From Clostridia bacterium (GTDB lineage Bacteria > Bacillota > Clostridia > Oscillospirales > CAG-272): a DNA stretch of 64,000 nucleotides. Every line of letters starts with the position of its first letter. Positions within the stretch are counted from its first letter, which is position 1. The stretch is taken from the NCBI GenBank assembly GCA_017411745.1, contig JAFQPM010000021.1, positions 71,460 to 135,459 of the forward strand, written 5' to 3'. Shown piece by piece: positions 19,290 to 61,611 of the stretch. Both the position numbers and the translations under genes were made by a program. Under the pieces are notes generated by a model. It was not told the origin of the DNA and made no database searches. It saw nothing but the letters and a program-made list of their open reading frames with translations.

Positions 19290-19579
19290 ATATAAAAAAC
19301 TCCTGTCCGCCGCAAAAACGGCTTGATAAAAATTCATTTTCTTTCCGCCGATAAACACACTCTCTCGCGCACGCGCGGAAAATAATCCACCTTATATTAT
19401 ACACAAAAAGGGGGTAAATGTCAAGGCGAAAGAGCGATTAATATGCAAAAAACTGAAAATTTATTCACTCTCTCGGCCAAAAATACTCCAATATTGTAAA
19501 TAAATTATAAAACTGCTTGAAATACAAGTCAAATTATGATAAAATTAATATGTACAACTTTACGCAAGGAACGTTTATT

Positions 19580-20053
19580 ATGGACATAAAGAAATTTTTT
19601 AAAAACCTTCTCTTTTTCGGTTCGGTATATTATACCGTGATCACAACAGTGCTTATTCTGATCGCCTCGCTTCTCCCGGGCGACTCCGCGCCACTCATAG
19701 AAACGAAACGCTTTCTTCTCATACTCCTATTCTCGTTTATGATGGGGATCGGTAGTGCCCTTTTGCGTGCAAACGTAATGAATCGAACCGCGGCAAGCCT
19801 CACGCATGCCGCCTGCTACGTTCTCGGATTTTTACTTTTCGTTGCGCTCGGCGGAGCGAATTTTTCCACAACCGTCATATTCACGCTTGTGTTCGCGATA
19901 ATTTACGTCACAGTCACCCTCATAGCAAGAAAGCTCTTAAAAATAGGCGTCGATAACGAAAAAAAGCTTTCCCAAAGCACCTCAAGTCCCAAAGGAAAAC
20001 CCCAAAAGAGCAAAAAACAAAAATCCACCTACACCAATCAATTTTTAAAATAA
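19580..20053 (+). CDS. Small integral membrane protein, function unknown
   Basis: Four predicted hydrophobic helices and a basic C-terminal tail (KGKPQKSKKQK). ATG 19580 is preferred over the TTG at 19517. Confidence 0.5.
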   Translation: MDIKKFFKNLLFFGSVYYTVITTVLILIASLLPGDSAPLIETKRFLLILLFSFMMGIGSALLRANVMNRTAASLTHAACYVLGFLLFVALGGANFSTTVIFTLVFAIIYVTVTLIARKLLKIGVDNEKKLSQSTSSPKGKPQKSKKQKSTYTNQFLK

Positions 20054-20892: not shown

Positions 20893-22527
20893 TCAATCCT
20901 CTTTCTTACGGAAAGCAACCGCACCGACGACCGATACGACAGCAACGACCGTAGCAGCGCCAAAGCCTACGACCGATCCGCAACCGTTTTTAACAGCAGG
21001 CTCGGGAACAAGATCGTCAGCCGTGCTCTGCTCATCGTCTTTAGCGGTGGTCTGACCATCCTCAACCGACGAAGTAACCTCTGTCTGTTCCGCAGTAGTC
21101 TGCTCGCTGGTCGGCTCCGTCTCGGGAACATAGCCAAGTCCCTCAATGTAGCTCATAAAGTAAGCCTCAGCGTCCTCCTCGCTTGCAAAGAACGCAATAA
21201 AGCAAACGTCAAACGTGTTAGCACCGGGAGTTGTGATATCAACGTTCTGCGCATCAAAACGAACGCCGTTGATTCGACCCGTATAATCCGAAAGCTCCGA
21301 AACGTCAACCGTGAAGGATAAATAACTGTCCTCTCCGATGTAGTAAGAATCCCAGGATACTCCGCTATTGGATATCTGGCAGTTAGGTCCTGGAGAAACG
21401 TTATCTCCGGTCATAATATATACGTTTCCGGTCTCAAAAGCGCCGCAAAGTCCGTCAATCTTGTCTTCCTCACTGCAAGTACAAAGATTTCTCGTTACCA
21501 TCATTGCTACGGGAAAATCCTCGATCGCGTAAGACGTAGCGTTTTCAACCGTCCAAGTGCCCGTACCCGTCGAAGCATTGCCTGCGACGATCTTGATCGT
21601 GTAATCATCGTTGATAGAAACAGCCTCACCCGTAGTTGACGCGGGAGCAGACTTGATATTAGAATTATCAACGTCACCGTTCATAAATATAGCAGGCTGA
21701 CCGGGCGCTATGTCGGGATCTTCAACCAAGGGCGCAGTCACGTAATTGTATGACCAATCCTCAGGCTCAGCACTGTCATCACCCGCAGGAGTCGCGCAAT
21801 CCTCTGCACTTGTGCCGTACTTAAGAAGAGTGCAAGCCACCTTACCGTTAAGCTCGCTGTGCTGCAAAGCAAATCCCGCGTATGCAAGACTGTCATCTCC
21901 GCCCCACTTTTCGTTCATATACTTGATAACACTTGAAGGCGCGGCAACTCCGTTAATAGTATATGCAAAGGTAGAGTTTTCATCATCCCAAGAGATTTCG
22001 GCAATGAAAACAGTCCTCTCTTCGTCGCCGTAAGTGACGGTTTTCTTGGGGATCTGGTTAGTCTGAGGTTGCTGATCACAATCTCCGGCATACCAGAAAT
22101 TTATATTGTTACCCGTAGGACGAATGTGATTATAAACACCGTTTCCGTGCCCCTTCTCACCCGGGGTCATATGCATATTATCCCAGAAAATAAAGGTAAA
22201 CCATGAATCAAGCCCACCGCTAAAATTAAACTCGTCGATTCTTATCTCCATATAAACGCCGTCCTTGAGATCGACCTTATCCTTGGAAACAAAACGTGCC
22301 CAAGGGGTCTGACCCGCCCAGTTTGCTGCAGTCAGATGGAATCCATCGTCATCATAATTGTATCCCGCAACCGATTCATAATCACTCTTGGGCGCACTGC
22401 CGTCGTACTGGTCTGCTCTGCCAACAGCCACCCAATCACCCTCGACCGCAGCCGTTGGTATCGTCGCCACGATAAGCAATGAAACGATCATCGCAATAGC
22501 AAGAACCATAGAAATAAATTTTTTCAT
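20893..22527 (-). CDS. Secreted surface protein, array paralog P1 (signal peptide, two conserved modules, acidic stalk, GCGSVVGFG-TM-RKKED end)
   Basis: 544 aa. ATG 22527 (MKKFISMVLAIAMIV...) follows AAGGAGAA; the track ATG 22557 lies in the 5' UTR. See findings. Confidence 0.85.
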   Translation of the reverse strand: MKKFISMVLAIAMIVSLLIVATIPTAAVEGDWVAVGRADQYDGSAPKSDYESVAGYNYDDDGFHLTAANWAGQTPWARFVSKDKVDLKDGVYMEIRIDEFNFSGGLDSWFTFIFWDNMHMTPGEKGHGNGVYNHIRPTGNNINFWYAGDCDQQPQTNQIPKKTVTYGDEERTVFIAEISWDDENSTFAYTINGVAAPSSVIKYMNEKWGGDDSLAYAGFALQHSELNGKVACTLLKYGTSAEDCATPAGDDSAEPEDWSYNYVTAPLVEDPDIAPGQPAIFMNGDVDNSNIKSAPASTTGEAVSINDDYTIKIVAGNASTGTGTWTVENATSYAIEDFPVAMMVTRNLCTCSEEDKIDGLCGAFETGNVYIMTGDNVSPGPNCQISNSGVSWDSYYIGEDSYLSFTVDVSELSDYTGRINGVRFDAQNVDITTPGANTFDVCFIAFFASEEDAEAYFMSYIEGLGYVPETEPTSEQTTAEQTEVTSSVEDGQTTAKDDEQSTADDLVPEPAVKNGCGSVVGFGAATVVAVVSVVGAVAFRKKED

Positions 22528-22578
22528 ACCTTTTCTCCTTGATAAATATTTTTGCAAAACACGGGTTCTACTTTTTTA

Positions 22579-22607
22579 ATTTTATCACGAAATTGGGGCA
22601 AAGTAAA
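22579..22607 (-). promoter_or_regulatory. Promoter of P1
   Basis: Sense strand reads AATTTACT - 17 nt - (TGa)TAAAAT. Confidence 0.7.
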
Positions 22608-22664
22608 TTCTCATTATAAACAAATTGAACGTTTTATTTTTGTTAGTATTGACAAACAAAAAAA

Positions 22665-22696
22665 GGTGGCTGTCACACGTTTGTGTGACAGCCACC
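22665..22696 (-). terminator. Terminator of P2
   Basis: 14-bp stem GGTGGCTGTCACAC/GTGTGACAGCCACC, followed by T7 on the minus strand. Confidence 0.85.
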
Positions 22697-22750
22697 AAAA
22701 AGTCAGGAACGGATTATAAGTGAGATTTTGAATCCGTTATGTATCCTTAA

Positions 22751-24394
22751 TTAGTCTTCCTTTTTCTTGAAGGAAACGAAGCCTGCAACGGATGCAACGG
22801 CAACGATTGCGATAGCGCCAAAGCCAACTACGCTTCCGCAGCCGCCCTGTGCATCGTCATCAGAAGGAGCAGCGGTGGTTCCTGCGGGCTTATCGTCCTC
22901 AGGAGCAGCGGTGGTTACATCAGGAGCCTTGGTAGTTTCCTCGGTAGTCTCCTCGGTAGTCTCCTCGGTGGTCTCTTCGGTAGTATCGTCTGCATCGGGA
23001 TCTTCCCAACCAAGGCTGGTGAGGTAGTTCTCGAAGTAAGCGTTAGCATCATCCTCGGTTGCGAAGCATGCTATGAAGCAAATGTCGAAGGTGTTAGCAC
23101 CGGGAGTAGTTGTATCAATGTTCGTAAGGTCAAAACGAACGGCATTGATTCTGCCGGAGAACGCGGAAATCTCGGAAGCATCAAGCATCATGCAAAGATA
23201 TCCGTCGTCGCCGATGTAGTAGGAATCCCAAGATACCGATGCGGAAGCCATACAGCCTGCGTCAGCGGTAAGATGATCGCCGGTCATAAGATATACGTTA
23301 CTGGTCTCGTAAGCGCCGCAACGTCCATCGACCTTATCATCTTCGGTACAAGTGCAGAAGTTCTTGGTAACCATCATAATGATAGGAAGGTCTTCAACAG
23401 CATAAGACGTAGCGTTCTCAACTATCCATGATCCTGTAGCGGAGGAAGAGTTGCCGGCTACGATCTTAACAGTGCCGTCCTCATTGAAGGTAATGGTCTC
23501 ACCGGAAGCAGAACCGGGAAGAGCCTTGATGTTGGAGTCAAGACTACCGTTCATAAAGATACCGGGCTGACCTGCCTCAAAGGAAGGATTCTCAACAACG
23601 GGAGCAGTTACGTAATTGGTAGAATAGTCGACAGGATCAGCGTAATCATCACCTGCGGGAACGGTAGCGTCGTCAGCGCTGGTGCCAAACTTGGTCATCG
23701 TGCAGCTGATAGCCTCGTCCTTGCTGTTGTGCTGGAATGCAAATCCAACGTAAGCTTCGCTGTCATCGCCGCCCCACTTCTCATTCATGTAAGTGATAGC
23801 TGCTTCAGCTGCAGCTTTACCGTTGATGGTGTATGTGAAGGTGCTGTTTGCCTCATCCCAAGCAATAACAACGGTGAGGTTGTGCTTACCATCCTCATCG
23901 ATATCCTGGGGAATGTCTTCCCATGTCTTAGGATTCAACTGAGTAAAGCCACCTGTAAACCAATAAGTGGTGTTGTTGATACCGGGACGGATAAGGTTCT
24001 GAAGACCTGTGCCGTAGTTAGGGTCACCGGGGGTCATAACCTGCTGGTCCCAAAGCATAACGTTGAACCAAGAGTCAAGACCTGCACCGTAGTTGAACTC
24101 ATCGATTCTGATCTCCATGTAAACGCCTGCCTTAAGGTCGATCTTGTTCTTGGAAACGAATCTTGCCCAAGGGGTCTGACCTGCCCAGTTAGCAGCGGTT
24201 ACGTGGAAACCGTCAGTTGTGTACTCGTATCCTGCTACGGAATTGTACTCCTCTTCGCCGATCTCCTCATTTTCCTGCTTTGCCTGAGCAACAACGGTCC
24301 AATCACCGTCGATAGCTGCTGTAGGAAGGGTAGCAACTATAACGAGAGAGAGCATCATTGCGAGAGTAAGCAAGATAGAAAGAAACTTTTTCAT
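22751..24394 (-). CDS. Secreted surface protein, array paralog P2
   Basis: 547 aa. ATG 24394 (MKKFLSILLTLAMML...) follows AAGGAGAA. Same architecture as P1, with a (TTEE)n stalk. Confidence 0.85.
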   Translation of the reverse strand: MKKFLSILLTLAMMLSLVIVATLPTAAIDGDWTVVAQAKQENEEIGEEEYNSVAGYEYTTDGFHVTAANWAGQTPWARFVSKNKIDLKAGVYMEIRIDEFNYGAGLDSWFNVMLWDQQVMTPGDPNYGTGLQNLIRPGINNTTYWFTGGFTQLNPKTWEDIPQDIDEDGKHNLTVVIAWDEANSTFTYTINGKAAAEAAITYMNEKWGGDDSEAYVGFAFQHNSKDEAISCTMTKFGTSADDATVPAGDDYADPVDYSTNYVTAPVVENPSFEAGQPGIFMNGSLDSNIKALPGSASGETITFNEDGTVKIVAGNSSSATGSWIVENATSYAVEDLPIIMMVTKNFCTCTEDDKVDGRCGAYETSNVYLMTGDHLTADAGCMASASVSWDSYYIGDDGYLCMMLDASEISAFSGRINAVRFDLTNIDTTTPGANTFDICFIACFATEDDANAYFENYLTSLGWEDPDADDTTEETTEETTEETTEETTKAPDVTTAAPEDDKPAGTTAAPSDDDAQGGCGSVVGFGAIAIVAVASVAGFVSFKKKED

Positions 24395-24459
24395 CTTTTT
24401 TCTCCTTAAAAATAAATAATTTTGTGCAAAAGACAAATCTCCAATCTTTTGTTATATAT

Positions 24460-24488
24460 ATTTTAGCACGAAAAGCAAATAAAGTAAA
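24460..24488 (-). promoter_or_regulatory. Promoter of P2
   Basis: Sense strand reads AATTTACT - 17 nt - (TGc)TAAAAT. Confidence 0.7.
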
Positions 24489-24589
24489 TTCGCATTATTC
24501 ACAAATTCCCCAATTCATTTTTGTTAGTATTGACAAACACAAAATTGTATCATCATAGCAATATTACGCATATTCGGATCTTCTAAAAA

Positions 24590-24620
24590 GAGGCTGTCGC
24601 GCAAGCACGCGACAGCCTCT
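24590..24620 (-). terminator. Terminator of P3
   Basis: 13-bp stem GAGGCTGTCGCGC/GCGCGACAGCCTC-type hairpin, followed by T5 on the minus strand. Confidence 0.75.
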
Positions 24621-24671
24621 TGGATTTCGGATCAGATTATTTTACGCCTCCGACCCATTATTGGTTTTTTA

Positions 24672-26492
24672 TCAGTCTTTCTTCTTTTTGAAAGAAACAA
24701 ATCCTGCAACAGCAACAACCGTAACGATCGCAACCGTACCGAGTCCGACTACACTTCCGCATCCGCCCAAGAGTGAATTAAGGATCTCGTCCTCAATATC
24801 GTTCAAATCATCATTGTCTGAATCGATTTTGGAATCGTCTTCAGCAGAAGTATGCTCGGGAGTATCCGTAGTCTCGGACATCTCAGCAGTTTCAATACCC
24901 GTAGACTCTGCAATTTCGGTCGTCTCGGGAGCTTCGGTAGTGTCAACAAATGTAGTATCAGGGGGCTCCGTAGTATCAAAGATCTCTGTAGTCTCCATAA
25001 CCGTTGTTTCAACAACATCTGTAGTTTCTTCTATAACAGTGGTCTCGGATGTAGTGGTGGTCACTTCATCAGGGGTTTCAGTAGATTCTTCTTCCCTGTC
25101 ATCATAACCAAGATCATTTATGTAGTTCATAAAATACGCATTTGCATCGTCGTACGTTGCAAAAAACGCTACGTAGCAAATATCGAAGGTACTAGCACCA
25201 GGTCTGAACATATCAATCTGAGAAACGTCAAAGCGAACGGCATTGATCCTTCCCGTAAATGAAGGAATTTCAGATACGTCTACGGTAAACTCAAGGTAAC
25301 TGTCTTCACCTATGTAATAAGAATCCCAACTTACCGACGTAGAAAGCATACAGCTTGCATCAGGCACCAATTTGTTCCCGACCATAATGTACGCATGAGC
25401 GTACTCGAAAGCTCCGCAAAGGCCATCATACTTGTCCTCCTCTATACACGTGCATAGGTTTCTCGTAACCACCGTCATTATGGGGAAATCCTCAATGGCG
25501 TAAGAGGTGGCGTTCTCAACGATCCAATTTCCCGTAGCGGAGTAAGAGTTGAAAGCTGTGATCTCGACTGTGTCGTCATCGTTGATAGATATAACTTCTC
25601 CGGTAGCCGATTTGGGATAATTTTTAATGTGAGAGTCAAGATTACCGTTCATAAAGATGGCTGGCTGCCCTGCTTCGACCTGAGAACCTTCAACTATAGG
25701 AGCGTTTACGTAGTTGAGAGAGTAATCAATAGGATCAGCGTAATCGTCACCTGCGGGAGTAACGGCATCATCAGCACTTGTGCCAAACTTGGTAAGTGTG
25801 CAGCTTATATCCTCGCCCTTGCTGTTGTGCTGGAAGCAAAAGCCAACGTATGCCTCGCTGTCATTGCCGCCCCATTTCTCGTTCATATAAGCAATAGCAC
25901 CCTCTGCAGCAGAAACACCGTTAATGGTGTATACGAAGGTGCTGTTGACCTCGTCCCAAGAAATAACAACGGTAAGGTTGTGCTTTCCATTCTCATCGAT
26001 ATCCTGAGGAACATCTTCTCTGTCATACGAAGGAACCTGATTAAAAGGTCCTGTAAACCAATGAGTAACGTTGCCAATACCGGGGCGGATAAGGTTCTGG
26101 ACACCTTCTCCGTAATGAGTATTTCCGGGAGTCATGACCTGCTGATCCCAAAGCATAACGTTGAACCAAGAGTCAAGACTTGCGTCGTAGTTGAACTCAT
26201 CGATTCTGATCTCCATATAAACGCCTTCCTTAAGGTCGACCTTGTTTCTGGAAACGAATCTTGCCCAAGGTGTCTGACCCGCCCAGTTGGCAGAGATCAA
26301 ACGAAAGCCATCCATGCAATACTCATATCCAGCTACAGATTTGTACTCATCCTCTGGGATTTCCCCAAATTCTTGATCTGCCTGAGCAACAACAACCCAA
26401 TCGCCATCAATAGCAGCTGTAGGAATAGCAGCAACTATAATGAGAGAAATCATCAAAGCAAGCACAAGCAACAAACAAATAAGTTTTTTCAT
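24672..26492 (-). CDS. Secreted surface protein, array paralog P3 (longest stalk)
   Basis: 606 aa, RBS GGAGG, MKKLICLLLVLALMISL... Same architecture, with a stalk of about 125 aa rich in acidic and Thr residues. Confidence 0.85.
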   Translation of the reverse strand: MKKLICLLLVLALMISLIIVAAIPTAAIDGDWVVVAQADQEFGEIPEDEYKSVAGYEYCMDGFRLISANWAGQTPWARFVSRNKVDLKEGVYMEIRIDEFNYDASLDSWFNVMLWDQQVMTPGNTHYGEGVQNLIRPGIGNVTHWFTGPFNQVPSYDREDVPQDIDENGKHNLTVVISWDEVNSTFVYTINGVSAAEGAIAYMNEKWGGNDSEAYVGFCFQHNSKGEDISCTLTKFGTSADDAVTPAGDDYADPIDYSLNYVNAPIVEGSQVEAGQPAIFMNGNLDSHIKNYPKSATGEVISINDDDTVEITAFNSYSATGNWIVENATSYAIEDFPIMTVVTRNLCTCIEEDKYDGLCGAFEYAHAYIMVGNKLVPDASCMLSTSVSWDSYYIGEDSYLEFTVDVSEIPSFTGRINAVRFDVSQIDMFRPGASTFDICYVAFFATYDDANAYFMNYINDLGYDDREEESTETPDEVTTTTSETTVIEETTDVVETTVMETTEIFDTTEPPDTTFVDTTEAPETTEIAESTGIETAEMSETTDTPEHTSAEDDSKIDSDNDDLNDIEDEILNSLLGGCGSVVGLGTVAIVTVVAVAGFVSFKKKKD

Positions 26493-26546
26493 AATATTCC
26501 TCCTTCGTCAATATGTCATTCGATAAAAATCATTCCCTTACACTTA

Positions 26547-26575
26547 ATTTTAACACGAAACACAAGAAAAGTAAA
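26547..26575 (-). promoter_or_regulatory. Promoter of P3
   Basis: Sense strand reads AATTTACT - 17 nt - (TGt)TAAAAT. Confidence 0.7.
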
Positions 26576-26672
26576 TTAACAACATATACAAATCCCCCAT
26601 TTCATTTTTGTTGGTATTGCCCTGTAAAAAAATATCATAAACCTCAATCAAGCATATACACTTTTTAAAAAA

Positions 26673-26700
26673 AGGCTGCCACACGTCTGTGTGACAGCCT
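26673..26700 (-). terminator. Terminator of P4
   Basis: 12-bp stem (one G.U in the minus-strand RNA) AGGCTGTCACAC/GTGTGGCAGCCT, followed by T7 on the minus strand. Confidence 0.8.
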
Positions 26701-26752
26701 CTTGTCTTTCGGATCAGATTATTTTACGCCTCCGACCCATTATTGCTTTTTA

Positions 26753-28390
26753 TCAGTCTTCCTTTTTCTTGAAGAAGACAAATCCCGCAACGGCAGCAAC
26801 CGCAACGACCGCAGCCGTACCGAATCCGACTACGCTTCCGCAACCGCCTGCCTTATCATCGTCAGTAGAAGGAGCAGAAGTTCCTGTGGGCTTCTCGTCC
26901 TCGGGCGCAGCAGTAGTTCCTGCGGGAGCCTCAGTAGTTTCTGCGGGAGCTTCGGTAGTTTCCTCGGTGGGTTCCTCCGTGGTTTCTTCGGTAGTGTCAT
27001 CGGGATTCTCTACACCAATGTAATCATAAACGTAAGCCTCGGCCTCTTCCATATTTCTGAAGAATGCCATAAAGCACATGTCAAGAGTGTTTCTTCCGGG
27101 TTCATTGTAGAACATACCATAAAAATCCGCGCGCATACCGTGAATTCTTCCCTCTGCATCCCACAAATCCTCAGAGGACATATCGCAGAAGAAATACAGA
27201 TACGAATTACCTTCCTCGTCCAAGATAGGCTCGTAGCATACCTCAAGACGTGTTTTGTGATTGTCATCCGCGCTGGAGAACTCACCCGTCATAATGTAAG
27301 CCCAAACCTCCTCGCAAGCGAAGCAGATGACCTCGCCGTCCTCTTCCTCGCACGAGCAGTAGTTTCTTGTAAGCACAAGTGCTATTGGGAAGTCCTGAAT
27401 ATCGTACGAAACGTCATTCGCAACCGAGTAGTTCGCATTGATGATCGTCTTGTCAGCAAGATATGTAACCGACCAGTCGTCATCGTTACGGGTCCTGTAA
27501 GGATTGCCGCTGATACCCGTGTTGGTCTTCGCATCTGAAAATTCTCTGCTTCCGTTAAGCAACACTCCGGGCATGCCGGGCTCAACTGTGTCGGGAGATG
27601 CTATTTCAGCGATCTCGGTGTAGTAGTTAACGGGATCTTGTCTGTCATCACCCGTAGGAGTGGTTGCAGTTTCCTTGCTTGTACCGAACTTAAGGACAGT
27701 CATTTCCGCGGTGCCGCCCTTTTTACCCGCCATAAAGTTAAAACCAACGAATGCCTCCATATCAACGAAGGTCTCATTCATATATTTGATGACCGATTCG
27801 GGAGCCTTCCAGCCGTTGATATCAGCCGCAAACGTAGTACCGTCCCAAGTAACCGTAAGCTCAAGCAGAAGCTTGCCGTTTTCATCCATAGGAGAGGTTC
27901 CTTTGACAGTAGACTGTGCGCCTGCATCAAATCCGCCCGTGTGCCACCAAAGCGTATGGATAGTTCCGTCGGCATTGGTTCTTATAAGAGTTTGAACACC
28001 GAATCCGTACTTGTCAACGTCGTTACTTCCGGGCAGAACCATTTCCTGACTCCAAAGGTTCATATTAAACCATTTGTCGCCCGCATCCCAAGTAAATTCA
28101 TCAATACGAACGAGCATATAAACGCCCTGCTTAACGTCATATTGAGTCTTTGTCTGTATTCCGCCCTGAACACCAAAATCTTTCCAGTCAGCAGGAATCA
28201 CTCTAAGTCCCTCGTTGGTATATTCGTAACCGATAACGCTAGTGTAATCGCCCTCAAAATCGTCACGATATTCTCCCGCAGAAGAATAAGCCATCCAGTC
28301 GCCCTCAACCGCAGCCGCAGGAATACCAATGACCGCTGCAAGCGAGAAGATCATTGCTAAGCTCAAAAGTCCCGAAATAAATTTTTTCAT
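26753..28390 (-). CDS. Secreted surface protein, array paralog P4 (subfamily 2)
   Basis: 545 aa, RBS AAGGAGAG, MKKFISGLLSLAMIFSL... Same signal peptide, C-terminus and module order; the mature part is closest to P5. Confidence 0.85.
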   Translation of the reverse strand: MKKFISGLLSLAMIFSLAAVIGIPAAAVEGDWMAYSSAGEYRDDFEGDYTSVIGYEYTNEGLRVIPADWKDFGVQGGIQTKTQYDVKQGVYMLVRIDEFTWDAGDKWFNMNLWSQEMVLPGSNDVDKYGFGVQTLIRTNADGTIHTLWWHTGGFDAGAQSTVKGTSPMDENGKLLLELTVTWDGTTFAADINGWKAPESVIKYMNETFVDMEAFVGFNFMAGKKGGTAEMTVLKFGTSKETATTPTGDDRQDPVNYYTEIAEIASPDTVEPGMPGVLLNGSREFSDAKTNTGISGNPYRTRNDDDWSVTYLADKTIINANYSVANDVSYDIQDFPIALVLTRNYCSCEEEDGEVICFACEEVWAYIMTGEFSSADDNHKTRLEVCYEPILDEEGNSYLYFFCDMSSEDLWDAEGRIHGMRADFYGMFYNEPGRNTLDMCFMAFFRNMEEAEAYVYDYIGVENPDDTTEETTEEPTEETTEAPAETTEAPAGTTAAPEDEKPTGTSAPSTDDDKAGGCGSVVGFGTAAVVAVAAVAGFVFFKKKED

Positions 28391-28435
28391 AACAAGCTCT
28401 CCTTGACATTTTTTAGGGAGTTATCCCTTTAGATA

Positions 28436-28465
28436 ATTTTATCATAAAATATTTGTCATTGTAAA
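28436..28465 (-). promoter_or_regulatory. Promoter of P4
   Basis: Sense strand reads AATTTACA - 18 nt - (TGa)TAAAAT. Confidence 0.65.
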
Positions 28466-28532
28466 TTCGCATTCTTTACAAAAAATAACTATTTATTTGT
28501 AACTATTGCCCAATAAAACACTTTCAATAGAA

Positions 28533-28563
28533 AAGGCAGTCGTGCATAAAGCACGACTGCCTT
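28533..28563 (-). terminator. Terminator of P5
   Basis: 13-bp stem AAGGCAGTCGTGC/GCACGACTGCCTT. The U-tract is weak (UUCUAUUG). Confidence 0.6.
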
Positions 28564-28588
28564 TGTTAATGTTCACCCGTTAAAGCGG

Positions 28589-30217
28589 TCAATCTTCTTT
28601 TTTCTTTTTAAACGTAACGAATGCAACCGCACCTATAGTCGTAACCATAGCAACTGCACCAAATCCAACTACGCTTCCGCATCCACTATTTTCATCATCG
28701 TTTGCGGTATTGTCGTCGGAATCAGCACCGGTAGTCTTCTCGGGAGCTTTGGTAGTTTCCGTAGTAGCGTCTGTGGTCTCCCCAGGCGCCTCGGTGGTCG
28801 CTTCCTCGGTGGTGCTTTCAGTCTCAGCGGGCTTTTCTACGCCCAGATAATCGTAAACGTATCCCTCTGCATCCTCCATATCTCTGAAGAAACCGACGAA
28901 GCAAACGTCAAACTGGTTAAGTCCGGGGGTCGCATAATCAATTCCGTTAAAGTCCATACGAACAGCATTCACTCTTCCCTCTGCATCCCAAGGAGCGAAA
29001 TCATCACTCATATCCGTATAGAAGTACAGATAAGAATCACCGTCGATCTCAATGGGCTCCCAGCATACGTAAAGAGGCGTACAATGATCTCCGTCGGGGC
29101 TGTTAAATTCTCCGGTAACAAGGTACATCGTGACCTCCTCGCACGCAATGCAACTTCCGTCCTCCTCTCCGCAGGTGCAGAGATTTCTGACGAGCATCAT
29201 AACTGCGGGGAAATCATCTATGGAGTAAGATACTTCATTTTTAGGCTTATAAACTACGCTGACAGACGAGCTGCTTGCAATATAGGTAACCGAATTATCT
29301 TCGTTGAGAATAGAGTTACCCGTCGAGCTCTTGCCTGCGGTGGTATAGGAATCCGAAGCGTCCTTGCTTCCGTTGATAAGGATCGCGGGCTTGCCATCCT
29401 CTACGGTAGAAGGATCTGCAATTTCTGCGACCTCGAGAGAGTAGTTGACAGGAGCCTCTTTGTCGTCACCCGAAGGAGTCAGAGCAGTCTCCTTTGTAGT
29501 ACCGTACTTGAGAACGGTAAAGCTTGCATCTCCAAGGGTCTTGGTGTGGAAGAACGCCATACCGAGATGTGCCTCCATATCAACGAAGGTCTCGTTCATA
29601 TAGTCAATAACTTTCTGGGGGGCAGCGATTCCGTTAATGGTAAGAGCAAACGAATTGTTCTCGTAAGTAACCACGAGTTCAAAGAGCGCTCTGCCCTCCT
29701 CGTCGTACATATCTACCCCTTGGAACGCAGAAGATACCTGAACCTGAGTGAATCCCTCAATATACCATTCAAGCTGAATAAACTTTCCGTCGTTGCCGGG
29801 TCTCATAATAGTCTGAACACCGTATCCATCTCTTTCAGCGTCACTGCTTGCAAGCTCTACCATCGGCTCGCTCCAGAGATTAAGATTGAGCCACTTATCA
29901 GGCGCGTCGTAAGAAAACTCGTCAACGCGGATAAGCATGTAAACGCCTTCCTTGAGATCGTATGTGCTCTTGGTCTGAAGACCTCCTCTGGGGCTCTGAC
30001 CTGCATAGAACTCGGGAGAAATGGTATGGAATCCCTCGTTCGTGTATTCATAGCCCATAACGCTTACGTATTCGTCATCCTCATAGTCGTCGCGGTACTG
30101 CTCCTTGCGGGCATATACCATCCAGTCACCCTCGACCGCAGATGCGGGGAGAGAGACGATAATGAGGGTCGAAACGATCATAGCAACTGCCAACAGTAAC
30201 GATAAAAACCTTTTCAT
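28589..30217 (-). CDS. Secreted surface protein, array paralog P5 (subfamily 2)
   Basis: 542 aa, RBS AGGAGG, MKRFLSLLLAVAMIVSTL... Same architecture. Confidence 0.85.
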   Translation of the reverse strand: MKRFLSLLLAVAMIVSTLIIVSLPASAVEGDWMVYARKEQYRDDYEDDEYVSVMGYEYTNEGFHTISPEFYAGQSPRGGLQTKSTYDLKEGVYMLIRVDEFSYDAPDKWLNLNLWSEPMVELASSDAERDGYGVQTIMRPGNDGKFIQLEWYIEGFTQVQVSSAFQGVDMYDEEGRALFELVVTYENNSFALTINGIAAPQKVIDYMNETFVDMEAHLGMAFFHTKTLGDASFTVLKYGTTKETALTPSGDDKEAPVNYSLEVAEIADPSTVEDGKPAILINGSKDASDSYTTAGKSSTGNSILNEDNSVTYIASSSSVSVVYKPKNEVSYSIDDFPAVMMLVRNLCTCGEEDGSCIACEEVTMYLVTGEFNSPDGDHCTPLYVCWEPIEIDGDSYLYFYTDMSDDFAPWDAEGRVNAVRMDFNGIDYATPGLNQFDVCFVGFFRDMEDAEGYVYDYLGVEKPAETESTTEEATTEAPGETTDATTETTKAPEKTTGADSDDNTANDDENSGCGSVVGFGAVAMVTTIGAVAFVTFKKKKED

Positions 30218-30265
30218 AGTTAGAACCTCCTAAAAAGCTGTCAGACGATCATCGTCCTACCTTTC

Positions 30266-30294
30266 ATTTTACCACCAAAGCCATTTTTTGTAAA
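30266..30294 (-). promoter_or_regulatory. Promoter of P5
   Basis: Sense strand reads AATTTACA - 17 nt - (TGg)TAAAAT. Confidence 0.65.
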
Positions 30295-30387
30295 TTGACA
30301 TTTTAAATCAAAAAGCCCCGCGTTTTTTGTGGATAGTAAACAATAGTTTCGGCAGCCGAGCGACACGACCGAACGGCGACGAATCGA

Positions 30388-31356
30388 TCAACCGTTTTCA
30401 AAAAATTTTCCCTGCCAAAGATCCGCGGAAAACATCTTTTTATCAATATTATTTATAACTATCGTCTTTTTTCGACTCCACTCGGGAGCTAAGAGCTCGC
30501 TCTGCATACCGTCGCCCGTCAGTCTGCCCACCACAGTCTCGGGAGGAAGAAGTGTCAGCGCCTCAGCGACTATATCAACGTATTCCTCCATTTCAAGCGG
30601 CTCGTATCCGCCCTCAAGATATATCTCGCCAAGCCTCGTTCCCCTGATGACGTGAAGCAAATGAAATTTCACCTGATCGGGCACCAGCCTCGCAACCTCT
30701 TTGACTGACTCAAGCATCATCTCCCTATTCTCCTCGGGCAACCCGAAGATCAGATGTACGCATATCTGTATCTTGTCCGATGCTTTCCTCAATTTCGCGT
30801 ATCCCTCGAGAAAATCCGCAAACGTATGCCCTCTGTTAATAGCAAAAGCGACCGAATCGTGAACCGTCTGCAATCCAAGCTCAACGGTCAATACTGTCCT
30901 CTCTGCCAAGGACGCAAGATACTCCACCACGTCATCCTCAAGACAATCGGCACGCGTGGCGATGTTCACTCCAACGACGCCCTCCTTGCCCGCGACCGCC
31001 TCGACCTTTTCTCTTATTACCTCAAGCGGCGCATAGGTGTTGGTGTGCGCCTGAAAATACGGAATATATTTGTCGGTCTTCCACTTGGACGACAGCTGAG
31101 CCTTAACTATCTCAAACTGCTCCTCAACGGGCAAGACTGCGTCAGCCGCAAAATCCCCACTTCCCCTCGGCGAGCAATAAATGCATCCTCCGACCGAGCA
31201 TTTTCCGTCGATATTCGGGCAGGTAAAGCCCGCGTCAAGCGGTATCTTCATACACTTTCCGCCAAACGTCTGTCTTAGATAATAGTCGTAGGTGTAATAT
31301 CGCTTGTTGCTGTCACTGTTCGGATACGGATTTATATCCTTTTGTTTTATCTTCAT
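30388..31356 (-). CDS. TIGR01212-family radical SAM protein (YtqA/YhcC-like)
   Basis: CPNIDGKCSVGGCIYCS cluster motif typical of this housekeeping family. ATG 31356 follows AAGGAG. Confidence 0.85.
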   Translation of the reverse strand: MKIKQKDINPYPNSDSNKRYYTYDYYLRQTFGGKCMKIPLDAGFTCPNIDGKCSVGGCIYCSPRGSGDFAADAVLPVEEQFEIVKAQLSSKWKTDKYIPYFQAHTNTYAPLEVIREKVEAVAGKEGVVGVNIATRADCLEDDVVEYLASLAERTVLTVELGLQTVHDSVAFAINRGHTFADFLEGYAKLRKASDKIQICVHLIFGLPEENREMMLESVKEVARLVPDQVKFHLLHVIRGTRLGEIYLEGGYEPLEMEEYVDIVAEALTLLPPETVVGRLTGDGMQSELLAPEWSRKKTIVINNIDKKMFSADLWQGKFFENG

Positions 31357-31437
31357 TGATACTCCTTGATCCTTAAAATTCAAGGGACGGTAATCTAAAT
31401 TGCCGCCCCTCGTACTATCAGGATTATTCTAACAAAT

Positions 31438-35478: not shown

Positions 35479-37398
35479 TTATTCTTCGGGAACATAGTTG
35501 TAAATTATTGTTGCGTTAGTAAGATCAGCATTGTAATCATAAATGCTTATCTCCGCCCACTGCTCCTCCGTGCCGGAGAAGTATACGCTCTCAAGGCTTG
35601 TGCATCCATAGAAAGCAAAATTGCCAATACGTGTAACGCTATCAGGGATTGTTATACTCGTCAGACAACTACAATCATAGAATGCATAATCTACTATGCT
35701 TGTTACACCGTTGGGGATCGTTATACTTGTCAAACTGCTGTCATAGAACGCATTAGAACCAATGCCAACCGTATTTTCGCGCAAAACCGCCTGTGTGGTA
35801 TCACAATCAACTATCCATTTATCCACGTAGGATATTCCGTTTTCTACCTGAATCACTCCGGTACAACCGTAGAACGCAGAATCGCCTATGCTGGTTACAC
35901 TGGCAGGAATAGTTATGCTCGTCAGACCACTACACCCGTAAAAAGCATAAGAACTAATGCCCATAGTGTTTTCTCGTAAAATCGCCTGCGTGATAGAGGT
36001 ATCGCAATCGATTATCCATTTATCTACGTAGGATATTCCATTTTCCATTTGAATGACACCCGTGCAGCCACTGAATGCATAATCGCCTATGTATGTAACA
36101 CTATCTGGGATTGTTACGCTTGTCAACCCGCTACATCTCTGGAATGCACCATTACCAATACTAGTGACACTATCGGGGATCATTATGTTCGAAAGACCGG
36201 AGCATCCTGAGAACGAACCCTCACCAATGCTGGTGACACTGGAGGGTATTGTTATACTCGTCAAACTACTACAACGTCCGAACACGTAAGAATCAATTTT
36301 ATTAACACCATTAGGGATAGCTATGCTAGTCAGATTGTAACAATCATAGAATGCACGTCTACCAATATTAGTTACATTATCGGGAATAGTTATGCTAGTA
36401 AGACCGCTACACCCATAAAACGCATAAGAACTAATGCCCACCGTATTTTCGCGTAAAATTGCCTGAGTAATAGTGATATCGCAATCAACTATCCATTTAC
36501 CTACGTAAGATATTCCATTTTCTATTTGAATCACACTCGTGCAACCGTAAAATGCATCCTCACCAATGCTTGTAACACCATCGGGTATAGTTATGCTATC
36601 CAACCTGCTGCAATTATAGAACGCATATCTGCCAATGCTGGTGACACTATCAGACATCGTTATGCTCATAAGGTTGGAACATCCCGAGAATGCACTATCA
36701 CCAATGCTAGTAACACTGTCAGGTATTGTTATATTCGTAAGGTTGGAACAACAGTAAAACACATTCTCGCCAATGTAGGTTACGCTATCGGGAATAATTA
36801 TACTCGTCAGATTACTACAATTGTAGAACGCACGGTCGTCAACACTTGTAACGATGTATCCACCAGGGGATATAGACGGAATGACGATATCGGTATCAGT
36901 ACAAGTTCCTATTCCACTAACATAGCAAGTACTGCCGTCACTGTTAGTGGTAAATTCTAAACCTTCGCTTACAACTATCTCTTCATCCGTGGTCGCCTCG
37001 GAAGCTTCTGTAGTCTCAGAAGCCACCGTAGTCTCGGATGTTACCGTTGTCTCGGGAGCCTCGGTTGTTTCAGGCGATACAGATGTCTCGGGAATGTCTG
37101 TCGTCTCGGGTGCTACCGTTGTCTCGGGAGTTACTGTCGTTTCCTCACCCTTGGTCGTTTCTTCCGCCTCGGTCGTTTCCTCTGCCTTGGTCGTTTCCTC
37201 TGCCTTGGTCGTTTCCTCTGCCTTGGTCGTTTCCTCTGCCTTGGTCGTTTCCTCTGCCTTGGTCGTTTCCTCTATTTTAGTCGTTTCTTCGGCAGTCGTG
37301 GTCTCTTCCCCGCCGTTCGAACCACCGTCACACGCCGCCAAAGTCAGCAAACAAAGCGCCAAAACCAATAAAACCACCAATAACGATGCTTTTTTCAT
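35479..37398 (-). CDS. BspA-type leucine-rich-repeat (LRR_5) surface lipoprotein A
   Basis: 639 aa from ATG 37398 (RBS GGAGGAAGG). Lipobox LLTLAA-C, then an (EETTKA)n stalk, then many NLTSITIPDSVTSIG..AF..C repeats. Track ORF start 37515 runs through the promoter. Confidence 0.88.
   Translation of the reverse strand: MKKASLLVVLLVLALCLLTLAACDGGSNGGEETTTAEETTKIEETTKAEETTKAEETTKAEETTKAEETTKAEETTEAEETTKGEETTVTPETTVAPETTDIPETSVSPETTEAPETTVTSETTVASETTEASEATTDEEIVVSEGLEFTTNSDGSTCYVSGIGTCTDTDIVIPSISPGGYIVTSVDDRAFYNCSNLTSIIIPDSVTYIGENVFYCCSNLTNITIPDSVTSIGDSAFSGCSNLMSITMSDSVTSIGRYAFYNCSRLDSITIPDGVTSIGEDAFYGCTSVIQIENGISYVGKWIVDCDITITQAILRENTVGISSYAFYGCSGLTSITIPDNVTNIGRRAFYDCYNLTSIAIPNGVNKIDSYVFGRCSSLTSITIPSSVTSIGEGSFSGCSGLSNIMIPDSVTSIGNGAFQRCSGLTSVTIPDSVTYIGDYAFSGCTGVIQMENGISYVDKWIIDCDTSITQAILRENTMGISSYAFYGCSGLTSITIPASVTSIGDSAFYGCTGVIQVENGISYVDKWIVDCDTTQAVLRENTVGIGSNAFYDSSLTSITIPNGVTSIVDYAFYDCSCLTSITIPDSVTRIGNFAFYGCTSLESVYFSGTEEQWAEISIYDYNADLTNATIIYNYVPEE
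37153..37278 (-). repeat. 18-bp in-frame tandem repeat (EETTKA) in the LRR-A stalk
   Basis: Five perfect copies of GGTCGTTTCCTCTGCCTT at 37171-37260, flanked by one degenerate copy on each side. Confidence 0.95.
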
Positions 37399-37433
37399 TT
37401 GTCCTTCCTCCTGAAAAAAATAGAAAACAAAAA

Positions 37434-37455
37434 GTGCGCAGCCGAAACCGCGCAC
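37434..37455 (-). terminator. Terminator-like hairpin inside the 5' leader of LRR-A
   Basis: Sense RNA reads GUGCGCGG-uuucgg-CUGCGCAC followed by UUUUUGUUUUCUAUUUUUUU. It lies between the promoter (-10 at 37487-37492) and the RBS. Confidence 0.6.
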
Positions 37456-37486
37456 CAAGACACGAGCTCCAACTTTATCTCGTTTA

Positions 37487-37515
37487 ATTATATCATCACT
37501 ATCAATATTTGTCAA
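37487..37515 (-). promoter_or_regulatory. Consensus promoter of LRR-A
   Basis: Minus strand reads TTGACA (37515-37510) - 17 nt - (TGa)TATAAT (37492-37487). Confidence 0.8.
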
Positions 37516-37733: not shown

Positions 37734-39326
37734 TCATTCCTCAGGAACGTAGTTGTAAACTATCGTAGCGTTTGTAAGATAAGGATTGTCCCAACCAATA
37801 ATTATCTCCGCCCATTCTTCCTCGCTTCCCATGTAATAAACAGTCGTTAGACTACTGCAATCATTGAACGCATAATGGCCTATGCCCATGATGCTATCAG
37901 GGATAATTATACTCGTCAGACTACTGCAACCGCTGAACGCATAATTAAAAATATTCGTAAGCTGGCTGTTTTCGCCGCAAGCAACGCTCGTCAGACTACT
38001 GCAACCGTCGAACACATAATCGGCAATGATCTTTACGCTATCAGGGATTGTTATACTCGTTAGACTGTAGCACTCATAGAATGCCTTATTGCCAATGCTT
38101 ATAAGCTGGCTGTTTTCGCCAAAAACTACGCTCGTCAGACTGCTGCAACCATCGAACGCAAAATCGGCAATGGTCCTTACGCTATCGGGGATAGCTATAC
38201 TCGTCAGACTGCTGCAACCATCGAACGCAAAATAGCCAATGCTCGTGACGCTATCAGGGATAGTTATACTCGTCAGATTATCGCAATTCGCGAACGCCGC
38301 CTGACCAATGCTCATGACGCCATTGGGTATAGTTATACTAGTCAGACGGTCACATCTCCTGAATGCACCGCCGCCAATGCCGACCGTATCTTCGCGTATA
38401 ACTGCCTGTGTGATATCGGTGTCACAATCAATTATCCATTTATCTACGTAAGATATCCCGTTTTCTATTTGAATCACATCTATGCAACCATTAAACGCAT
38501 CCGGACCAATGCTCGTGACACTGTCGGGAATCGTTATACTCGTAAGACCACTGCAACCAATGAACGCATAATTGCCAATGCTCGCAAGTTGGCTGTTTTC
38601 ACCGAAAATAACGCTTGTCAAAGCACTGCATTCCTCGAACGCAGAATCACCAATGCTTTTAAGTTGGCTGTTTTCGCCGAAAATAACACTCGTCAAAGCA
38701 CTGCATTCCTTGAACACATAATCACCAATGCTTTTAAGTTGGCTGTTTTCGCCGAAAATAACACTCGTCAAAGCACTGCATTCCTCGAACGCACGGTCGC
38801 CTACACTCGTAACGCCATCGGGGATAGTTATGCTCGTCAGATTGCTGCAATCCTCGAATGCGCGATCGTATATACCCGTAACGCGATACCATATACCGTC
38901 ATTATCGCAGAAAACGTCGGGAATGATAAGCTGCTCGCCCATTTCACCCGTATAACCGATTTTCGTTCTGTTGCGTGAATTAACAGTAAAATCAATAGGT
39001 TTTATTACCTCATTATAGGAATCTCCACATTCGAAGCAGGTATACACCGCAAGTCCATTCTTGGTTGCGGTGGGTTCAGTTACTGCAGATTTGTAGTTAT
39101 GTCCGAGTGCATCAATATTCTGTGTTTCCTTTTCACCGCAAGCACAAGTGCGCTCCTGCTCACCCATCTCGGTGCAGGTCGCTTCCCTTATTATAGCCCA
39201 TTCACCGAATGAACAAATATGTTCTTTGGTGGTTTCCCCACCGTTCGAACCGCTATCACACGCCGCCAAAGTCAGCAAACAAAGCGCCAAAACCAATAAA
39301 ACCACCAATAACGATGCTTTTTTCAT
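37734..39326 (-). CDS. BspA-type leucine-rich-repeat (LRR_5) surface lipoprotein B
   Basis: 530 aa from ATG 39326. The signal peptide and lipobox are identical to LRR-A. A Cys-rich module is followed by LRR_5 repeats. The C-terminal 30 aa are near-identical to LRR-A (NATI[IV]YNYVPEE). Confidence 0.88.
   Translation of the reverse strand: MKKASLLVVLLVLALCLLTLAACDSGSNGGETTKEHICSFGEWAIIREATCTEMGEQERTCACGEKETQNIDALGHNYKSAVTEPTATKNGLAVYTCFECGDSYNEVIKPIDFTVNSRNRTKIGYTGEMGEQLIIPDVFCDNDGIWYRVTGIYDRAFEDCSNLTSITIPDGVTSVGDRAFEECSALTSVIFGENSQLKSIGDYVFKECSALTSVIFGENSQLKSIGDSAFEECSALTSVIFGENSQLASIGNYAFIGCSGLTSITIPDSVTSIGPDAFNGCIDVIQIENGISYVDKWIIDCDTDITQAVIREDTVGIGGGAFRRCDRLTSITIPNGVMSIGQAAFANCDNLTSITIPDSVTSIGYFAFDGCSSLTSIAIPDSVRTIADFAFDGCSSLTSVVFGENSQLISIGNKAFYECYSLTSITIPDSVKIIADYVFDGCSSLTSVACGENSQLTNIFNYAFSGCSSLTSIIIPDSIMGIGHYAFNDCSSLTTVYYMGSEEEWAEIIIGWDNPYLTNATIVYNYVPEE
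38576..38800 (-). repeat. Three near-identical 75-bp (25-aa) tandem LRR units
   Basis: Period of 75 bp from CAATGCT... at 38576, 38651 and 38726. Encodes SALTSVIFGENSQL[KA]SIG[DN][YS][AV]F[KEI][EG]C. Confidence 0.9.
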
Positions 39327-39365
39327 TTGTCCTTCCTCCTGAAAATGAAAAATAGGAAACAAAAA

Positions 39366-39387
39366 GTGCGCAGCCGAAACCGCGCAC
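39366..39387 (-). terminator. Terminator-like hairpin inside the 5' leader of LRR-B
   Basis: Same sequence as 37434-37455, followed by a U-rich tract before the RBS. Confidence 0.6.
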
Positions 39388-39418
39388 CAAGACACGAGCT
39401 TCAACTTTATCTCGTTTA

Positions 39419-60834: not shown

Positions 60835-61611
60835 TCAGGAAATATCCCTTTGATCGCAAGGGATATCAAGCTTATCTGCGCAGACGTTTAACGTAACATA
60901 CATAACAAAATAGCATATCACGGCAAGCACTATCTCAGCCAGATAAGCGACTATCATAAGCAGCGGATCGAGGATCTTTTCGATCGTGAGAATATCGTTG
61001 ATCGCTTGCGTCATAAGGCTTATAAGCAGTATAACGATCGAGCACGCGAGGACGGATCGAAGCAAGCAATTCTCTTTATCGTAGAGCTTTTTGAAGGGGA
61101 AAATCTCGGGAATAAGATGAGTTTTGCCGACTTTTTGGCAGAATTCGACCGCTTTCCAATGACGTGAAATAAGTGAGCAAACGATTGCCAAAACGAGTGC
61201 AAGCTGCAAAAGCTCAAGGATCGAGTAGTACATTACATACAAAATATCGACGGGCCAAGACTTTGGAATACTGCCATTAGTTATCCAGTCGACGATCGTA
61301 TTCAGTGAATATTTATGCAATGTTGCTCCTATAAATATTCCTACCCCTCCCTTGAAGCTCGAGAGTGTGAATCGGTATATTCCATAGATCATGACCGCAT
61401 ACGCTGCCGCAACAGCGACCAATTCAAGCAGTCGTCTGAGATAGAACAAAACGTCGACCAGCACGGATCCATCATACATGATATCGTTTATCACGCCAAT
61501 ATAAATCGGGGATACTACGAGTCCGTTAAGCGTGTATAACGTCGCAAGTGTGATCGCGCTGAAAAGATACAGTTTTTTTCTTAATGCTTTTTTATTATCG
61601 TATAATTTCAT
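60835..61611 (-). CDS. Integral membrane protein, function unknown
   Basis: 258 aa with about 6 hydrophobic helices. ATG 61611 follows GAGG; the track TTG at 61626 is unsupported. Confidence 0.5.
   Translation of the reverse strand: MKLYDNKKALRKKLYLFSAITLATLYTLNGLVVSPIYIGVINDIMYDGSVLVDVLFYLRRLLELVAVAAAYAVMIYGIYRFTLSSFKGGVGIFIGATLHKYSLNTIVDWITNGSIPKSWPVDILYVMYYSILELLQLALVLAIVCSLISRHWKAVEFCQKVGKTHLIPEIFPFKKLYDKENCLLRSVLACSIVILLISLMTQAINDILTIEKILDPLLMIVAYLAEIVLAVICYFVMYVTLNVCADKLDIPCDQRDIS

Follow-up and report, generated by a model that had tools for sequence, protein, structure and literature searches.

In a 64,000-nucleotide stretch of the genome of a Clostridia bacterium (assembly GCA_017411745.1, contig JAFQPM010000021.1, positions 71,460 to 135,459; hereafter the window, from whose first letter all coordinates are counted), we analyzed a tandem array of five minus-strand paralogs, here named P1 to P5. 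On balance, we interpret this array as a fixed repertoire of surface-displayed, non-catalytic and probably glycan-binding two-module proteins with diverged specificities, which herbivore-gut Clostridia would use either as lectin-type adhesins or for substrate capture. The two head modules belong to no named sequence family and are built from known folds, the top-ranked fold matches of both being carbohydrate binders, and no catalytic domain was found in any family member examined.

The initial annotation had proposed five minus-strand paralogs of 542–606 aa sharing one architecture and falling into two subfamilies. The open reading frames (ORFs) were confirmed, and the alignment, with pairwise identities of 36–62% and 112 invariant columns, separated subfamily A (P1–P3) from subfamily B (P4–P5). 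The layout common to all five comprises a signal peptide, a module of ~230 aa (N-module), a module of ~205 aa (C-module), an acidic Thr/Glu/Pro stalk of 46–111 aa, and a tail composed of G-C-G-S, a transmembrane helix and KKK[ED]. In P1, the signal peptide occupies residues 1–27, the ConA/L-lectin-like N-module ~30–255, the C-module, a jelly-roll resembling a carbohydrate-binding module (CBM), ~262–465, the stalk ~466–514 and the tail 515–544. The (T/E/P)n stalk is encoded by tandem repeats of 12 to 21 nt (22927–22984, 26898–27003 and 28789–28817). The shared architecture was also verified with 13 residue patterns, 12 taken from the initial annotation and one, for the tail, added here: 11 of them (10 of the annotation's) matched in the genes for which they had been claimed, and the other two, ING...A......YMNE and F....[ED][DE]A..Y, each contained an extra dot and, without it, fit all five proteins. 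A protein identical to P3 occurs on six contigs from independent ruminant-gut metagenome assemblies, and on the longest P3-bearing contig shown (49 kb, ENA) a gene caller returned the same five lengths and the same neighbors; because this independent contig gives the same five genes, the array is not an assembly artefact. Long plus-strand frames also run antisense to the P genes (28550–30196, 25629–26579, 23729–24409 and others, reaching 549 codons opposite P5). These were rejected as real genes, long antisense frames being general in this genome because the codons TTA, CTA and TCA are avoided genome-wide (every gene checked has 2–23 per 1000). Scanning the window for Rfam families and tRNAs gave no matches.

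The expectation that neither globular module would fall into a named family was upheld by every sequence search. Pfam and NCBIfam searches with P1–P5 returned only noise or matches to the low-complexity stalk, none of the Pfam matches reaching E ≤ 1, and Pfam searches with 55 aligned family members returned stalk matches only, with no lectin family at E ≤ 0.1; no CBM or glycoside hydrolase (GH) family of Pfam was matched in either set. A PDB sequence-profile search with the full-length alignment produced nothing meaningful, and a profile of 39 C-modules gave zero matches at E ≤ 10 against all PDB sequences, including 6SGF, the best structural match of this module. At the structural level, by contrast with these empty searches, both modules could be placed. 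An AlphaFold2 model of P1 built on the 55-sequence alignment, with a predicted local distance difference test score (pLDDT) of 83 and a predicted template-modelling (TM) score of 0.76, contains two β-sandwich modules at the boundaries given above. Residues 1–470 are well ordered in this model (10-residue block means of 66–98, all but one at least 75), whereas the stalk and tail (472–544) have pLDDT below 50 and are disordered.

The likeness of the first module to lectins and ConA, suggested earlier from composition, was borne out at the level of fold. Foldseek assigned to the modelled N-module a two-sheet β-sandwich of the L-type-lectin/ConA-like fold, with 7elv, 2a6z/2a71, 3lcp, 4m00 and 7yl4 as top matches (probability 0.98–1.00, E 1.6e-6 to 1e-4) and target TM scores of 0.42–0.57 for single-domain lectin entries and lower for multi-domain entries. 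The matched proteins include the legume-lectin domain of the archaeon M. jannaschii, together with Emp46p/47p, ERGIC-53 and the lectin modules of SraP, YwfG and Pls/Aap/SasG; GH16 enzymes (β-agarase A, a capybara-gut GH16_3 and the Bacteroides ovatus MLG GH16) ranked below the lectins. Across the 55 members, the N-module residues R96, D98, D107, W109, N192 and G193 show complete or almost complete conservation, and the conserved strand reads G-V-Y-M-x-x-R-[IV]-D-[ED]-F, from which the GH16 catalytic strand E-x-D-x(x)-E is absent. No glutamate in either globular module reaches 90% conservation among these members.

The C-module, modelled alone (pLDDT 92), adopts a β-jelly-roll for which Foldseek ranks first CBM86, a xylan-binding module from Roseburia intestinalis (6sgf; E 1.1e-4, query TM score 0.44, target TM score 0.67). 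The matches that follow are Endo-A (an endo-β-N-acetylglucosaminidase), a mannanase entry with a CBM, the arabinosyltransferase EmbB and then CBM27, after which Eph-receptor ligand-binding domains also appear. A loop of this module bears a C-x-C-x(7-9)-C cluster with a fourth Cys nearby (P1 residues 349–361, window ~21445–21483, and equivalents), which is present in most family members and absent from the most divergent ones (P0047–P0056); it could form a metal site or disulfides in the extracellular protein of an anaerobe. A count of orthogroup-specific against universal columns gave no localized specificity-site signal, the criterion used being too strict.

The family extends far beyond the window. 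An exhaustive profile search recovered 226 clusters (50% identity) at E ≤ 1e-30 and 361 at E ≤ 1e-10, and a word-indexed search recovered 59 clusters at 90% identity, none of them functionally named. In a set of species-representative genomes, the family was found only in metagenome-assembled genomes (MAGs) of uncultured Clostridia, Eubacteriales and Oscillospiraceae, and the hosts, where record names give them, are sheep, goat, roe deer and water deer (gut). Tandem arrays of two to five family genes are the rule across loci. Several architectural variants were observed: proteins with the N-module only and the same stalk and tail; type-II-anchored BspA proteins with leucine-rich repeats (LRR) that carry the N-module at their end; full heads fused to BspA-LRR or to a pre-peptidase-like domain; and a protein of 2860 aa combining a full head with MucBP, VWA, Big_2, cohesin and dockerin domains. 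In a related MAG, the gene at the position of P3 (L003:4549-7710, 1049 aa) joins two complete heads in one reading frame to a single stalk and tail. This range of architectures shows the modules to be autonomous. Overall, the fusion partners serve in adhesion or as scaffolds (LRR_5, MucBP, VWA, Big_2/Big_4, cohesin and dockerin), which is consistent with the adhesin-like role suggested in the initial annotation.

Comparison with relatives points to an array that is conserved position by position. Four further species-level MAGs have their genes in the order P5-P4-P2-P1, with positional orthologs 62–94% identical; P3 has no ortholog in those four, its nearest relative being P2 at ~61%, and copy number differs between relatives (four versus five). 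Ratios of nonsynonymous to synonymous substitution rates (dN/dS) between orthologs were 0.08–0.28 for whole genes and 0.03–0.29 for the globular modules, neither of which is relaxed, while the stalk (0.07–0.46) is less constrained than the heads; between paralogs, dS is saturated (>1). The array had earlier been likened to variable surface gene families, an interpretation that did not survive: in addition to the orthology of the four array positions and the low dN/dS, no inverted repeats of at least 25 nt were found and no homopolymer or simple-sequence-repeat tracts at promoters or 5' ends, the only tandem repeats being those in the stalk codons and a few short ones of two to three copies. 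Nor was the decay in relatives that had been considered seen, the family being under strong purifying selection. Judged by these sequence comparisons, the array is an old, maintained repertoire that is neither switching nor decaying. Recent gene conversion between paralog bodies was likewise rejected, the longest identical run between them measuring 34 nt.

The 3' ends of the genes have a different history. P3 and P4, whose proteins are 36% identical, share 82% identity over the 99 nt that encode the tail and 81% over the 3' untranslated region (24581–24767 versus 26663–26848), and P2 and P4 share 77% identity in the stalk-coding DNA (22747–22947 versus 26749–26949), protein identity in these pairs being only 36–40%. 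P3 has a P2-like body and a P4-like tail-coding end and terminator, and is placed between P4 and P2. This mosaic structure suggests that unequal crossover or gene conversion has acted on the 3' ends alone. Given its body, its 3' end and its location, P3 is what an unequal crossover between the tail segments of P4 and P2 would be expected to produce, and we infer that it arose in this manner; on account of this mosaic, the tail-coding DNA would also serve as a recombination substrate that changes copy number. The double-head gene of the related MAG is a further recombination product within the array.

Each of the five genes had been described as an independent transcription unit with its own promoter and hairpin terminator, and both elements were recovered. 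The window contains exactly five copies of the motif AATTTAC[AT]-N14/15-TGnTAAAAT (-35 and extended -10), none of them on the plus strand, and each copy ends 51–65 nt upstream of one of the P1–P5 start codons; in P1 it reads AATTTACT-N14-TGATAAAAT. In related loci (L001–L013, L034, L035), 32 of the 35 family genes have the promoter 42–69 nt upstream, whereas the same search matched in only 2 of the 24 genes of the distant loci L015–L033. Since the promoter is conserved gene by gene across species whose synonymous divergence ranges from ~0.2 to more than 1, there is good comparative evidence that each family gene has a promoter of its own. Every stop codon of P1–P5 is followed by a GC-rich hairpin of 13–15 bp and a T-rich tract. 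A second small hairpin (GGGTCGGA...TCCGA), which is conserved, was observed between stop codon and terminator of P3 (24629–24656) and P4 (26711–26738) on the minus strand, and a different small hairpin lies downstream of P2. An 18-nt box, GTCAATACTAACAAAAAT, stands ~27 nt upstream of the -35 element in subfamily A (with 0.07 matches expected in the window, three were found) and has been preserved upstream of the P1 and P2 orthologs in L001–L005; it could be a subfamily-specific operator or UP element.

The C-terminus of all five proteins follows the scheme G-C-G-S-V-V-G-[FL]-G, ~20 hydrophobic residues and [FR]-K/R-K-K-[KE]-D. In alignments of 39 and 37 tails, drawn from 69 distinct tails of 36 loci, the Gly-Cys pair is invariant and is followed by ~20 hydrophobic residues and a Lys-rich [KR]2-5 cluster; all sequences of the 55-member alignment have the tail Cys, and at least 90% of them have Gly before it. 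The [LN]PXTG pentapeptide is absent from P1–P5 and from all 69 tails examined. No curated CTERM model of NCBIfam (TIGR03901 and similar) reached its cut-off on the tails. The LPXTG (TIGR01167) and NPXTG (NF033846) models matched four of the five tails at 13.8–15.7 bits, below their cut-off of 15.9, over the transmembrane and basic part only, their matches beginning after the motif positions; matches to the tail of MXAN_2561_fam, a MYXO-CTERM protein family, scored 13.6–17.4 bits, with a cut-off of 150.

This tail is not restricted to the family. A metagenome scan for GCGSVVGFG detected it on otherwise unrelated proteins, among them a GH3 glycosidase, a Big_2 protein type and an unassigned protein, and a GCSS variant with a family-type stalk was found on a protein with three CBM_4_9 domains encoded directly downstream of a family member (table below). 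The family hidden Markov model matched these carriers in stalk and tail only, or not at all, and no NCBIfam CTERM model reached its cut-off on them. A tail profile searched against a collection of 5.8 billion proteins matched only fragments of 31–79 aa and so gave no information. A CPBP protease motif was not found in a scan of all ORFs of the window and of the flanks of L001–L035, nor did Pfam detect a CPBP protease in five of the predicted multi-transmembrane proteins of the window. Among the scanned window proteins is a DUF3021-like membrane protein (19517–20053), and the sole unassigned polytopic membrane protein of the window lies at 60835–61626 (minus; 263 aa, ~5 predicted transmembrane segments, no Pfam match).

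The tail helix may be either a plain membrane anchor or a processed signal. Membership of the anchoring tail in the class of Cys-type sorting signals, as a new representative, is possible, although we would not assume it. A broader proposal is equally tentative: the tail might be an uncatalogued Cys-type sorting signal of gut Clostridia, recognized by some intramembrane enzyme, a protease or a transferase, that would cut off the helix and attach a lipid or wall polymer to the Cys, so displaying glycan-active proteins (this family, GH3, CBM4_9 and Big_2), while the two head modules would represent two new carbohydrate-binding families.

Taken as a mechanism, the preferred reading would run as follows. 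In the host, which we take to be an uncultured Clostridia bacterium of the herbivore gut (Eubacteriales/Oscillospiraceae-like), the proteins would be exported via Sec, with the signal peptide presumably cleaved between [TA]-[AS]-A and [VI][ED]GDW, and would be attached at the C-terminus through the Gly-Cys signature, a single transmembrane helix and a cytoplasmic Lys-rich cluster. The acidic stalk of 46–111 residues, disordered in the model, would carry through the wall a head formed by the L-type-lectin/ConA-like β-sandwich and then the CBM-like β-jelly-roll, leaving it exposed at the surface, where the ligand would be a carbohydrate. Given their age and the conservation of each one across species, the paralogs probably recognize different ligands, the array acting as a fixed set without switching. 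Each gene would be transcribed as a unit by itself, from a promoter of the type common to all five, and separate regulation is possible because of these individual units and the extra upstream box of subfamily A. Unequal recombination between the conserved 3' ends, which encode stalk and tail, would add genes to the array or remove them, and P3 would have arisen in this way.

Several observations weigh against this reading. The fold likeness is moderate (E 1e-4 to 1e-6, TM score 0.45–0.67) and is a likeness of fold only, at ~10–13% sequence identity to the structural matches; ConA-like and jelly-roll folds also bind proteins, as illustrated by the SPRY and Eph-receptor ligand-binding domains among the matches; and the window neighbors are housekeeping genes, with no polysaccharide-utilization locus (PUL). 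With a clearly lower probability, these proteins would be protein-binding adhesins rather than lectins, engaged in co-aggregation or in contacts with host or microbial surface proteins, or acting themselves as cohesin-like scaffold partners. Besides the protein binders among the fold matches, the BspA-type LRR, VWA and cohesin/dockerin partners, which are mainly protein-interaction modules, and the two BspA-LRR genes located 5 kb from the array speak for such a role; the carbohydrate binders at the top of both match lists, the genuine CBM4_9 and GH3 domains carried on the same stalk and tail scaffold, and the GH78-like, CBM32 and DUF4838 neighbors in distant loci speak for glycans instead.

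The remaining explanations fare less well. Structural components of the envelope, whose heads would pack against one another in a surface-layer (S-layer)-like coat or in wall-spanning fibrils, would fit the multiple strongly promoted paralogs and the Thr-rich stalk with C-terminal anchor, which recalls the C-terminus of the haloarchaeal S-layer glycoprotein and gives weak compositional matches to TIGR04216. We nevertheless regard this as improbable, given that neither Pfam nor NCBIfam detected SLH, CWB2 or other S-layer domains and that the archaeal likeness is limited to the low-complexity stalk and the transmembrane segment, scoring far under the cut-off (18.8 versus 400 bits). A variable or antigenically switching family, with alternative expression and rapid diversification, could draw on the tandem paralogs with individual promoters, the varying copy number, the fused double-length gene and the mosaic 3' ends, but is rendered decidedly improbable by the positional orthologs retained across species, the constraint on both modules, the lack of invertible or phase-variable sequences at the array and the shortness of the identical runs between paralog bodies. 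That one module is a divergent surface polysaccharide enzyme, for instance a GH16-like glycanase, is highly improbable: GH16 enzymes do share the ConA-like fold and occur among the N-module matches, yet lectins outrank them, GH families are not matched in Pfam, the R-[IV]-D-[ED]-F strand is without the GH16 residues E-x-D-x-x-E, and no strongly conserved glutamate is available in the modules.

On one side, the array is flanked by a convergent SGNH/GDSL hydrolase gene and nusB/tsaD/xseA, and on the other by a TIGR01212-like radical SAM gene, an aspartate aminotransferase gene and a DinG-type helicase gene. The radical SAM gene (30388–31383, minus) lies directly upstream of the array, and of 35 loci, the window counted, 21 have such a gene together with the family. 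In a distant clade, a GH78-like gene occurs in nine loci, directly upstream of a family gene in the seven with a listed gene order, and in several distant loci it stands between the radical SAM gene and the family gene; CBM32 and DUF4838 neighbors are also found in distant loci. The association with the radical SAM and GH78-like genes looks like a conserved chromosomal position more than a functional operon, although it may also reflect a functional link. The two BspA-type LRR_5 genes mentioned above are adjacent (35479–37515 and 37734–39404, minus) and lack the Gly-Cys tail; the same LRR type is fused to family modules in other genomes (P0010, P0054–59, P0188).

Table 1. Array genes, tails, promoters, terminators and upstream boxes in the window, and tail carriers in other loci
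Feature	Position	Strand	Description
P1	20893–22527	minus	544 aa, subfamily A; ORF call
P2	22751–24394	minus	547 aa, subfamily A; 58% to P1, ~61% to P3
P3	24672–26492	minus	606 aa, subfamily A; 57% to P1; 111-aa stalk; lineage-variable extra copy
P4	26753–28390	minus	545 aa, subfamily B; 40% to P1
P5	28589–30217	minus	542 aa, subfamily B; 38% to P1, 51% to P4
Gly-Cys tail coding	P1 20896–20985, P2 22754–22843, P3 24675–24764, P4 26756–26845, P5 28592–28684	minus	P1: GCGSVVGFG, transmembrane helix, FRKKED
P1 promoter	22579–22609	minus	AATTTACT-N14-TGATAAAAT; putative -35 and extended -10; conserved in orthologous loci
P2 promoter	24460–24490	minus	P1-type motif; conserved in orthologous loci
P3 promoter	26547–26577	minus	P1-type motif
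P4 promoter	28436–28467	minus	P1-type motif; conserved in orthologous loci
P5 promoter	30266–30296	minus	P1-type motif; conserved in orthologous loci
Terminator after P1	20852–20881	minus	13-bp stem, then GTTTTTTTAT; bidirectional, also ends the convergent SGNH gene
Terminator after P2	22665–22696	minus	14-bp stem and T7 run
Terminator after P3	24588–24621	minus	15-bp stem; last two pairs use the first two Ts of TTTTT
Terminator after P4	26670–26703	minus	15-bp stem; last pairs use the first Ts of T7; 81% identical to the region after P3
Terminator after P5	28532–28564	minus	14-bp stem; last three pairs use the first three Ts of TTTTCTATT
18-nt box GTCAATACTAACAAAAAT	22636–22653 (P1), 24517–24534 (P2), 26604–26621 (P3, 2 mismatches)	minus	P1–P3 only
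GH3 glycosidase	L045:164-4132		1323 aa, He_PIG and Fn3-like domains; GCGSVVGFG tail
Big_2 protein	L039:2687-4111 (type in L038–L041)		475 aa; GCGSVVGFG tail
Unassigned protein	L048:2033-3172		GCGSVVGFG tail
Protein with three CBM_4_9 domains	L020:3257-5233		GCSS tail variant, family-type stalk; directly downstream of a family member

Most herbivore-gut Clostridia have yet to be cultured, and beyond cellulosomes and sortase-anchored proteins their attachment to fiber or mucus is poorly known. With hundreds of clusters, arrays of two to five copies and strong purifying selection, the family provides candidate substrate- or host-recognition proteins for these bacteria. If binding can be demonstrated, the two unnamed domains would become new CBM or lectin families.

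Among known systems, the nearest in layout are the Gram-positive lectin adhesins SraP, YwfG and Aap/SasG/Pls, which are Sec-exported surface proteins of monoderms, as P1–P5 are predicted to be, with a distal L-type lectin sandwich, further β modules, a spacer and a C-terminal anchor, and which the N-module matches in fold (Foldseek E 1e-5 to 1e-4). YwfG, a cell-surface protein of Lactococcus lactis, binds α-1,2-mannose through its L-type lectin domain (PMC9815576). The present family differs from these adhesins in having no relation to them at the sequence level, in an anchor that is not LPXTG, in being encoded as conserved tandem arrays of diverged paralogs, and in a second module that is CBM-like rather than of the cadherin, MucBP or G5 type. 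That module shares with CBM86, the N-terminal xylan-binding module of R. intestinalis Xyn10A (PDB 6SGF), the β-jelly-roll and an origin in gut Clostridia, but identity is ~10%, the length is ~205 aa versus 131 aa, and a Cys-rich loop and a C-terminal helix are additional; unlike the CBMs of CAZy, it was never seen with a catalytic domain in the members examined. A non-catalytic, membrane-tethered layout of multiple β-sandwiches is also found in the surface glycan-binding proteins (SGBPs) of Bacteroidota (SusE/F-like; SGBP-B 7KWB is among the matches), which capture glycans at the surface with paralogs of different specificities, and analogous roles may be supposed here. SGBPs are, however, N-terminally lipidated outer-membrane proteins encoded in SusC/D PULs of diderms, whereas the present proteins have a C-terminal anchor, belong to Clostridia and lie in a window with no recognizable utilization locus.

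The tail occupies the same position as the sortase signals LPXTG (TIGR01167) and the NPXTG of Ruminococcus (NF033846) and has the same transmembrane segment and Lys/Arg end, but in place of [LN]PXTG it has G-C-[GA]-[SG] at the membrane boundary. It resembles the Cys-type tripartite signals of the MYXO-CTERM class, with which it shares an invariant Cys preceded by Gly, then a transmembrane helix and a basic cluster at the extreme C-terminus, as well as the occurrence on proteins with otherwise unrelated domains and in several copies per genome; it differs in having a Lys-rich instead of an Arg-rich basic cluster, as a rule with Glu or Asp at its end, and in its clostridial hosts. The Cys-type tripartite signals so far described come from Myxococcota, Proteobacteria, Synergistetes and Thermococcales. 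Signals of the MYXO-CTERM class are processed by CPBP/Rce1-like myxosortases, in a study that does not mention Firmicutes (bioRxiv 10.1101/2023.06.07.544157; PMC11980579). If the proposal holds, a clostridial Cys-type tail on glycoside hydrolases and binding proteins would amount to a second, sortase-independent anchoring route in gut Firmicutes, and the proposed sorting signal would, by analogy, be the counterpart of MYXO-, JDVT-, Synerg- and CGP-CTERM outside their described lineages.

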